The position numbers and the translations under genes are program-made. This document shows, piece by piece, positions 15,128 to 15,306 of a stretch of 64,000 nt of DNA. A model generated the notes under the pieces. The model searched no databases, was not told where the DNA came from, and saw only the letters and a program-made list of their open reading frames with translations. Source of the DNA: Clostridia bacterium (lineage in GTDB: Bacteria; Bacillota; Clostridia; Oscillospirales; CAG-272); contig JAFSYU010000033.1 of the NCBI GenBank assembly GCA_017443595.1, forward strand, positions 201,414 through 265,413, given 5' to 3'. Numbering within the stretch: the stretch's first letter is position 1; each line of letters opens with the position of its first letter.

Positions 15128-15306
15128 GTGAAATCTTTTGCCTTGCGGCAAAAGGTGAAATCAAAGGCATTCGCCTTTGGCGAAATCGAGCGTTTCACGC
15201 TCGGTGAAATTAAATCCACCCACCCGTCGTCGAGGCGGATTTCACCCTGCAAAGCAGGATTTCACCGACGGAGTCGATTTAACCCACCCGCAAGGGTGGA
15301 TTTAGT
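15128..15306. repeat. Array of eight 7-nt-motif + hairpin units, four on each strand and convergent
   Basis: Plus-strand motifs:
- GTGAAAT 15128 with hairpin 15135-15154.
- GTGAAAT 15155 with hairpin 15162-15179.
- GCGAAAT 15180 with hairpin 15187-15203.
- GTGAAAT 15204.

Minus-strand motifs:
- ACTAAAT (15306-15300) with hairpin 15284-15299.
- GTTAAAT (15283-15277) with hairpin 15266-15276.
- GTGAAAT (15265-15259) with hairpin 15246-15258.
- GTGAAAT (15245-15239) with hairpin 15224-15238.

A long-range pair TAAATCCACCC 15211-15221 / GGGTGGATTTA 15294-15304 is also possible. Confidence 0.75.

Follow-up and report, generated by a model that had tools for sequence, protein, structure and literature searches.

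The Gut-1 motif of gut Clostridia is commonly one half of a two-armed hairpin array behind tRNA genes that may act as DNA

The Gut-1 motif was reported by Weinberg et al. in 2010 from human-gut environmental sequence, with no cultivated organism known to carry it, and was rated by its describers as certainly an RNA and not cis-regulatory (PMC2864571). Rfam classes the family (RF01706) as Gene; sRNA, with a model that covers only one half of the arrangement described here. In our literature search no paper other than the 2010 report mentioned Gut-1, and the literature on GUGAAAU, RF01706 and the four-helix-bundle or intervening-sequence (IVS) proteins held nothing on function beyond homology to Avd. 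The describers of Gut-1 later pointed out that their method cannot tell single-stranded DNA motifs from RNA motifs, and another "candidate RNA" of the 2010 paper was subsequently matched to integron attC sites, which act as DNA (PMC5737381); we count this precedent toward a DNA reading of Gut-1. The present work concerns an array of eight heptamers and intervening hairpins behind a tRNA-Glu gene in a 64-kb stretch of a Clostridia genome (contig JAFSYU010000033.1, positions 201,414 to 265,413; the whole stretch is referred to as the window). It is near certain that this array is one complete Gut-1 element, consisting of a canonical half on the minus strand and an inverted, more diverged half on the plus strand. 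From a comparison with related loci we propose, tentatively, that Gut-1 is a DNA-level, cis-acting protein-binding array of small cassettes with tRNA 3' ends as their insertion sites.

A scan of the window with Rfam at curated thresholds returned three matches, two tRNAs and RF01706 "Gut-1 RNA". The Gut-1 match spans minus-strand positions 15234-15308 with 72.1 bits (gathering score 50) and covers model positions 1-77 of 77. Under a permissive local search the plus-strand half, 15126-15215, also aligns to model positions 1-77 (E = 2.3e-6), with 40.5 bits against the gathering score of 50, a shortfall that is explained by its longer stems. As both halves align to Gut-1, the convergent 4+4 array amounts to two Gut-1 copies facing each other, and three hairpins with covarying stems joined by GUGAAAU linkers, by which members of the family are recognized, were found. 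The original prediction, made from the letters of the window alone, had placed the array in no known family. This was wrong as far as RNA families are concerned. As to the other classes that were named, CRISPR arrays need identical repeats of 23-50 nt with unique spacers of similar length, whereas the repeats here are 7 nt long and the second half is inverted; iterons need repeats of ~17-22 bp in helical phase and a rep gene, whereas the motif is 7 nt and no rep lies within 4 kb; and repetitive extragenic palindromic (REP) sequences and bacterial interspersed mosaic elements (BIMEs) are built differently, as discussed below. Taken alone, the window instance is an ordinary, cargo-less addition to the known Gut-1 family.

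Reading of the window sequence bore out all eight heptamers and their convergent layout (Table 1). Of the hairpins with unrelated stems that had been placed after seven of the heptamers, six are perfect and one, the central P4 (15224-15238), is imperfect, with a G.T wobble on the plus strand that becomes a C.A mismatch on the minus strand. Heptamers follow one another at 18-27 nt from start to start, and the 11-20-nt spacers that form the hairpins are self-complementary. Exact GTGAAAT occurs 11 times in the 64-kb window, and 5 of these copies fall inside 140 bp of the array. When the window was scanned for runs of three or more heptamers with end-anchored hairpins in between, only the two array halves were found, while none of 200 dinucleotide-preserving shuffles contained such a run; folded as single-stranded DNA, the two array strands gave z = -8.0 and -9.9 relative to shuffles. 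The heptamer-plus-hairpin array is thereby confirmed as real and non-random. The 11-bp long-range pairing of the original prediction, here termed P0, is present as well, and is reported by a repeat search as 14 nt with 93% complementarity.

Table 1. Coordinates of the array and of the features around it in the window
Feature	Positions	Strand	Description
Direct repeat, ~100 nt	14912-15015 and 15430-15532		99% identity over 92-nt core
Sigma-70-like site	15054-15083	+	TTAACT-18-TATAAT; 10/12 matches, points into array
tRNA-distal half	15128-15210	+	4 heptamers, 3 hairpins
Heptamer	15128-15134	+	GTGAAAT
Hairpin	15135-15154		Perfect
Heptamer	15155-15161	+	GTGAAAT
Hairpin	15162-15179		Perfect
Heptamer	15180-15186	+	GCGAAAT
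Hairpin	15187-15203		Perfect
Heptamer	15204-15210	+	GTGAAAT
Long-range stem P0, one strand	15211-15221		TAAATCCACCC; partner 15294-15304
Central hairpin P4	15224-15238		Imperfect; CCGTC-GTCGA-GGCGG on plus strand
tRNA-proximal half	15239-15306	-	Heptamers H1-H4, hairpins P1-P3
Heptamer H4	15245-15239	-	GTGAAAT
Hairpin P3	15246-15258		Perfect
Heptamer H3	15265-15259	-	GTGAAAT
Hairpin P2	15266-15276		Perfect
Heptamer H2	15283-15277	-	GTTAAAT
Hairpin P1	15284-15299		Perfect
Long-range stem P0, partner strand	15294-15304		GGGTGGATTTA; spans P1 arm and part of H1
Heptamer H1	15306-15300	-	ACTAAAT
Leading hairpin Pt	15308-15339		Perfect 14-bp stem, A-run and T-run flanks
tRNA-Glu 3'-end copy, 21 nt	15340-15360	-	CGATTCCCCCACGGGTCACCA; attachment-site-like scar
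Mini-insertion, ~170 bp	15361-15530	-	Between tRNA-Glu and displaced 3' fragment
tRNA-Glu	15531-15605	-	Anticodon CTC; 3' end anchors whole arrangement

A pattern scan of one genome per species gave at least 120 loci. Among the matches listed, nearly all are Clostridia metagenome-assembled genomes from human, goat, sheep, deer, buffalo and yak guts, with Oscillospiraceae, Acutalibacteraceae, Ruminococcus, Christensenellaceae and "Eubacteriales" as the carrier taxa. A regular expression for the tRNA-side half then yielded 59 arrays in 57 loci (given below as L with a number). Read on the tRNA strand, their order is leading hairpin Pt, H1, P1, GTGAAAT-P2, GTGAAAT-P3 and GTGAAAT-P4, followed by a P0 segment complementary to the 3' part of H1 and the 5' arm of P1 and then by three to four ATTTCAC-hairpin repeats; the unit begins right behind the CCA of a tRNA and has the last heptamer as its end. 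The two halves together form one module of ~180 nt, and the window follows the family order element by element. H1 is ACGAAAT or ACTAAAT across the arrays, and a long hairpin, either terminator-like with A and T runs or GC-rich, occupies the position of Pt in all aligned loci. In a rescan of 19 comparison loci with RF01706 the proximal half was matched in 19 of 19 (53-80 bits), and in L160, L186, L187 and L197 the distal half also exceeded the gathering score on the other strand (51-54 bits). Several of the published Gut-1 seeds turned out to have the inverted half downstream in their flanks, and one seed begins inside a tRNA. The 2010 paper left both of these undescribed, and the leading hairpin, P0, the linkage to tRNA genes, the mobility and the PF05635 neighbour are likewise absent from the published description.

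The secondary structure is supported by covariation in a MAFFT alignment of 32 non-redundant arrays, which was not structure-fitted. In the local hairpins 85.7% of cells are paired, as against 59% after column shuffling and 34-46% with slid partners, and 39 of the 40 pairs show compensatory changes in which both sides are altered; P4 (helix 4) is the worst-aligned helix, with 53.6% paired. The P0 stem, by which the tRNA-side half is closed, covaries in the family too, with 98.9% of its cells paired and 5 of 11 pairs compensatory, including G/T of H1 against C/A, and in an anchor-based test at least 10 of 12 positions were matched in 55 of 58 arrays compared with 5 of 1160 shuffled controls.

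Departures from the two-armed plan were also observed. Single-half members (L134 1343-1410 on the minus strand; seeds BAAZ01023714 and BAAY01013587) have four to five direct heptamers with hairpins, and some of them use one stem twice; the pair of halves is thus common but not universal. L038 (9862-9900) and L084 (300-372) agree from the tRNA fragment through Pt and the proximal half and diverge exactly after P4, where L038 has the end of a sugar-kinase gene in place of the distal half, and the array centre may be a recombination or deletion breakpoint. Arrays arranged head to tail were seen in L202 (2137-2491) and in seed BAAV01002358, the distal end lying ~40 nt before the next leading hairpin or array.

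Within a locus both halves carry the same heptamer, and it differs between subfamilies: most arrays carry GTGAAAT/ATTTCAC, and L249 and several published seeds carry GTGATAT/ATATCAC. Pairing of the GTGAAAT of one half with the ATTTCAC of the other, which would give a rod of four-way junctions, was rejected as deviating heptamers are never compensated and are left unpaired. A heptamer that is constant within a locus, changes in concert and is not maintained by pairing fits a trans-acting, sequence-specific reader rather than self-pairing of the array.

Wobble pairs and loop sequences indicate which strand is under selection. The proximal hairpins of 58 arrays comprise 864 Watson-Crick, 6 G.T and 12 A.C pairs, and the alignment of P1, P5-P7 and P0 gives 1102, 21 and 7, respectively. 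The wobbles are biased by strand: read on the tRNA strand, the distal hairpins have 16 G.T versus 3 A.C and the proximal ones 6 versus 12. Loop types depend strongly on the strand as well, and at the array centre the preference passes to the other strand. Counted on the tRNA strand versus the opposite strand, cGNAg loops number 5 versus 59 in the proximal hairpins and 28 versus 3 in the distal hairpins; the corresponding counts are 1 versus 18 and 36 versus 2 for cGNNAg, 0 versus 27 and 6 versus 0 for GCGNAGC, and 0 versus 0 and 16 versus 0 for GCGNNAGC. That loops and wobbles obey the same strand rule suggests selection, in each half, on the strand that reads hairpin and then ATTTCAC outward from the centre. 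The P4 hairpin of the window agrees with this rule, and in the half that is scored by Rfam the favoured strand is the opposite of the model strand. Both GCGNAGC and GCGNNAGC are extra-stable DNA mini-hairpins of which the RNA versions are much less stable (PMC13037366, PMC3201870), and such mini-hairpin motifs are found at the single-strand initiation sites of phages G4, St-1 and alpha3, at RSF1010 ssiA and at the N4 hairpin promoters (PMC13037366). Together, the strand-flipping loops and the near-lack of wobbles favour an element that would act at the DNA level and be read on both strands.

No conserved promoter was found at the distal flank, where an outward site occurs in 7 of 32 arrays and an inward site in 6 of 32, and no back-to-back promoters were found in the centre; on the remaining side Pt touches H1, which leaves no room for one. 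The promoter-like site and the strong terminator that the original prediction had placed on either side of the array are both present in the window, where Pt looks like a bidirectional terminator, but the inward promoter does not extend to the family as a feature. Two other ways of tying the repeats to transcription were discarded: the heptamer with its next bases as an extended -10 element fits one subfamily (GTGAAATAAT) and not that of the window (GTGAAATC...), and the 4-7-bp stems and three-U runs are too weak for each hairpin with its AUUUCAC to serve as a weak terminator.

The predicted position of the array downstream of tRNA-Glu on the minus strand was borne out and proved to be part of a wider pattern, as 26 of the 59 arrays follow an intact tRNA gene on the same strand at a distance of 32-48 nt, behind 15 isoacceptors in all, and 6 more, including that of the window, lie 224-421 nt downstream of one. 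Between tRNA-Glu and the window array lies an insertion of ~170 bp, which is bounded by a 21-nt copy of the 3' end of tRNA-Glu (15337-15360 versus 15528-15551, 96% identity). Since this insertion separates the array from the gene, the array and Pt abut the displaced copy of the CCA end: Pt sits between the CCA of the tRNA fragment and H1 and touches both. It is the adjoining mini-insertion, not the array, that is bounded by the 21-nt repeat in the window. In the viral-contig arrays L084, L038 and L079 a tRNA fragment is followed by Pt and then by the array, as in the window. These three were the only real arrays in a scan of viral contigs for three GTGAAAT with wide gaps, which otherwise returned mostly tandem-repeat noise, and a BLAST search with the array against phage genomes gave no match.

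Several comparisons bear on whether the unit is mobile. Copies that are 95-98% identical occur with sharp ends at unrelated sites within one genome (L142, L148 and L215), the duplicated unit starting at Pt and ending exactly at the last heptamer, and units of at least 90% identity are joined at CCA|G to tRNAs that differ from genome to genome, the pairs being Glu with Arg, Ser with Arg, and Arg with a fragment of another tRNA. In close relatives of the window organism the orthologous loci keep the tRNA-Glu and the flanking genes, and the array is absent; exact-protein look-up of the upstream gene returned identical strains only. Direct repeats of the 3' end of tRNA-Ser surround the array and its cargo in L160 (23 nt) and L187 (16 nt), perfect ones of 42 and 37 nt in L197 and L144 enclose the array with its cargo genes, a ~100-nt direct repeat surrounds the cargo-less array block of the window, and decayed tRNA-end repeats were seen in L170 and others. 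Runs of unit, open reading frame and unit occur in L148 and L142, and no intI was present within 4 kb of the 57 loci. As judged from sequence comparison, block-wise duplication and presence/absence variation indicate that the Gut-1 unit moves as a block.

Clustering of the open reading frames within 4 kb of the arrays revealed only one recurrent family, a protein of ~115 residues belonging to Pfam PF05635 (23S_rRNA_IVP). A tBLASTn search over the 983 kb of the loci found ~21 PF05635 genes or pseudogenes, of which ~19 immediately adjoin an array at its distal end and point away from it. Proteins of this family are homologous to Avd, which serves as accessory protein in diversity-generating retroelements (PMC10053308). 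Array-linked Avd-like genes were seen at L132, L139, L144, L146, L147, L174, L183-L186, L196, L197, L212, L214, L218 and L243, and frameshifted or truncated PF05635 genes at L185, L139, L213 and L239. In L197 and L144 the array and the PF05635 gene lie together inside the perfect direct repeats, and in several cases the promoter -35 element of the gene overlaps the last heptamer, for example TTGAAA-17-TATAAT in L186. The other cargo comprises methyltransferases, a WapI-like immunity protein, a histidine phosphatase and proteins without known function. The window itself contains no PF05635 gene by tBLASTn.

The reading to which we incline, still tentatively, is that the array acts as DNA and not as a conventional small RNA. 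A putative trans factor would read the heptamer beside a generic hairpin, with its specificity set for each subfamily (GTGAAAT or GTGATAT). Each half would be read on its outward strand, hairpin and then ATTTCAC, which bears the GNA and GNNA loops that are stable in single-stranded DNA, and binding might occur when recombination, replication or cassette transfer leaves the region single-stranded or extruded for a time, the two inverted halves allowing the same factor to act on both strands or from both sides. The unit would move as a block and often take along a promoter that reads outward and a small gene as cargo, most frequently one for an Avd-like four-helix bundle; the window would then hold a module without cargo, parted from tRNA-Glu by the later ~170-bp insertion. 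Candidate factors are the Avd-like protein itself or an enzyme encoded elsewhere, be it a recombinase, a primase or a reverse transcriptase, with a role in recombination, in priming or as an operator. Among the three ideas offered by the original prediction, recognition sites for a hairpin-binding protein, possibly on single-stranded DNA, appear to fit the comparison best.

Of the known DNA systems, integron attC sites are similar in combining hairpins of variable sequence with conserved 7-nt motifs and small cassettes alongside, and in acting as folded single-stranded DNA, often without a nearby integrase. An attC site, however, is a single imperfect hairpin in which the inverse core sites (R''/R', L''/L') are paired, whereas the Gut-1 heptamers are direct repeats between separate hairpins and inter-heptamer pairing lacks compensatory support; Gut-1 also differs in having no IntI-like gene nearby, in its Clostridia hosts and in its tRNA 3'-end target. 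The arm-type sites in the attP of tRNA-targeting tyrosine integrases (lambda, L5) resemble the array in being several short repeats in two orientations within ~200 bp of a core that overlaps a tRNA 3' end, with tRNA-end direct repeats left after insertion as in L160 and L187, but they need no intervening hairpins, Gut-1 has no integrase linked within 4 kb, and cargo-bearing Gut-1 elements, unlike attP arms, have all eight repeats on one side. In its most specific form, which we consider unlikely as a whole, the proposal would make Gut-1 no RNA gene at all but the folded-DNA recognition module of an undescribed cassette system of gut Clostridia, in which promoter-bearing small genes, typically stand-alone PF05635, are inserted precisely at the CCA ends of many tRNA genes, and in which an Avd-like protein, or an unlinked recombinase or reverse transcriptase assisted by it, reads the hairpin-ATTTCAC units on the exposed strand, in analogy to integron attC recombination or to tRNA-primed retro-insertion.

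Several observations weigh against a DNA-level array and have to be set beside the alternatives. A clear downstream tRNA-end repeat was present in 2 of 25 tRNA-adjacent arrays and in none of the other 23 within 3.5 kb, so that most insertions are without a classical att signature, and no recombinase, transposase, Rep or REP-associated tyrosine transposase (RAYT) family recurs within 4 kb of the arrays at the 57 loci. Loops and wobbles are a firmer guide to the strand than to the molecule, as GNRA loops (GCAA, GAAA and GTAA) stabilise RNA too and short stems may exclude wobbles for stability alone. Terminator-like hairpins bound some units (Pt; L142), which would also suit RNA genes, and on the plus strand the window array is bracketed by a promoter-like site and a terminator. 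The main rival reading is that Gut-1 is a non-coding RNA as filed in Rfam, its single-stranded heptamer linkers titrating or recruiting an RNA-binding protein in the manner of a CsrB-like sponge, whether as a ~250-nt read-through transcript, as two outward RNAs each ended by a terminator or as a tRNA trailer. This explanation, possible but in our view doubtful, has in its favour the Rfam match, the covariation reported with the published motif, the compensatory changes seen in each of the hairpins, the GNRA tetraloops of the strands that read outward, a U-run of Pt that lies away from the centre, a second terminator at the end of the L142 units, the strong tRNA promoters upstream and, in the window, the bracketing of the plus strand by the 15054-15083 site and the 15308-15339 hairpin. 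An RNA gene is nevertheless at odds with the lack of a promoter conserved on either side or in the centre, with the exact end of the duplicated unit at the last heptamer, with wobbles at ~1-2% of stem pairs, and with loops that are mostly 3-nt GNA or GNYA, special in DNA rather than RNA (PMC13037366), on the strand opposite to that of the Rfam model. CsrB and RsmZ do repeat a short motif many times on a hairpin scaffold, but their motifs stand in the loops of a single transcript with its own promoter, whereas that of Gut-1 is a linker; the second half, which carries the complementary heptamer, is left unaccounted for by a sponge.

That the arrays are REP/BIME-like palindromic blocks, selfish or passively copied, which accumulate behind tRNA genes and serve at most as a transcription or supercoiling insulator or a nucleoid-protein site between a strongly transcribed tRNA and the next gene, is improbable. 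They do share with REP/BIME and REPIN-RAYT elements an extragenic position between terminators and promoters, multiple copies per genome, and palindromic units in two orientations that join a hairpin to a short flanking motif; that no enzyme gene is linked to Gut-1 within 4 kb also suits a passively copied block. In REP sequences, however, the palindrome is conserved within a genome and the linkers vary, whereas Gut-1 shows the reverse, with stems that all differ within and between arrays and a conserved linker; no Y1-transposase gene of the RAYT type is among the recurrent families near the Gut-1 loci, and a functional module of defined make-up is favoured by the constant order of its parts, by the asymmetry that H1 and P0 give it and by the specific association with PF05635 genes. 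We hold it to be very improbable that the array is a single-strand initiation or origin signal (a G4-type primase origin, RSF1010 ssiA/ssiB or a single-strand origin, sso) at which primase or RNA polymerase starts the complementary strand, whichever of the two strands is left single once the cassette has been transferred or excised. The stable-loop strands would be the lagging-strand templates of forks leaving the centre. RSF1010 ssiA and ssiB lie on opposite strands, and initiation signals and, on the DNA reading, Gut-1 halves alike use opposite strands where both must be served. The G4 origin, ssiA/ssiB and the N4 virion-RNA polymerase promoters are, as the Gut-1 halves would be on that reading, DNA hairpins capped by GNA or GNNA and read single-stranded, and GCGAAGC, GCGTTAGC and CCGAAGG mini-hairpins occur at the phage G4, St-1 and alpha3 origins and at ssiA (PMC13037366). 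Yet known signals of this kind are made of one to three hairpins, lack a recurring heptamer linker and come with a replication or phage system linked to them, whereas most Gut-1 copies lie in ordinary chromosomal intergenic DNA with no rep, primase, relaxase or oriT-like partner within 4 kb. Finally, the original prediction suggested stacked degenerate T-arm scars, such as repeated integrations would leave behind; this is contradicted by the comparative alignment and retains practically no probability. True tRNA 3' fragments do adjoin arrays (15340-15360 in the window; L084, L038, L079 and L192), and T-arm-like pieces lie behind some of them, but these real scars stand beside the array; the heptamers are unpaired linkers between independent covarying hairpins and not stem-closed loops, the array occurs behind 15 different tRNA types, and the likeness to TTCAAAT is limited to AAAT.

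The surroundings of the window array contain further elements. The ~170-bp mini-insertion holds a terminator hairpin (15493-15532), an inverted T-arm piece (15467-15480) and hairpins at 15432-15458 and 15366-15418, and relatives carry it at L128 (4688-4860, one copy), L123 (4688-5180, three tandem copies) and L125 (4946-5330). Its order over ~170-190 bp is terminator hairpin, inverted T-arm part, second hairpin, a conserved GCGGTGACCG, the long hairpin GATTTTTGCAAG...CTTGCAAAAATC, AAGAA and then the 21-nt direct repeat of the tRNA 3' end; at L125, which lies at tRNA-Val, the T-arm piece and the repeat are altered to match tRNA-Val. By its sequence it looks like a small non-autonomous tRNA-targeting element. 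In the array-less relative L128, positions 4862-4920 hold a displaced tRNA-Glu 3' fragment, a Pt-like terminator (GCAAAAAGCACGCGAAAGCGTGCTTTTTTCA) and then ATTAAGTCCGCTTTGCGGCG, which resembles a lone H1 with P1, and this segment may be a remnant of array deletion. The ~100-nt direct repeat in the window brackets what remains of the mini-insertion, the tRNA fragment, Pt, the array and 112 bp of spacer, and Campbell-type recombination or duplication are possible origins. The genes of the window, among them those for a dockerin-bearing protein of 1113 residues, an alpha-L-rhamnosidase, a lipase, an MscS-type channel and a SpoVB-like flippase (9322-12663, 19853-23164 and neighbours), have their best protein matches in "Clostridia bacterium" metagenome-assembled genomes and point to an uncultured, fibre-degrading Oscillospirales-like member of the Clostridia.

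Since 2010 Gut-1 has been an orphan "sRNA" entry of Rfam, with gut metagenomes as its only known source. The comparison adds an anatomy of inverted halves, leading hairpin and closing stem, an address at the CCA end of tRNA genes, evidence of movement as a block and a PF05635 partner, a picture that was absent from the literature we found. Even if the DNA reading is wrong, the data show the strand and the boundaries at which an RNA should be probed. If it is true, the database annotation would be corrected, abundant gut bacteria would be seen to carry a new class of mobile cassettes, small and placed beside tRNA genes, and the array would provide the first functional handle on the very common and unexplained stand-alone PF05635 proteins.

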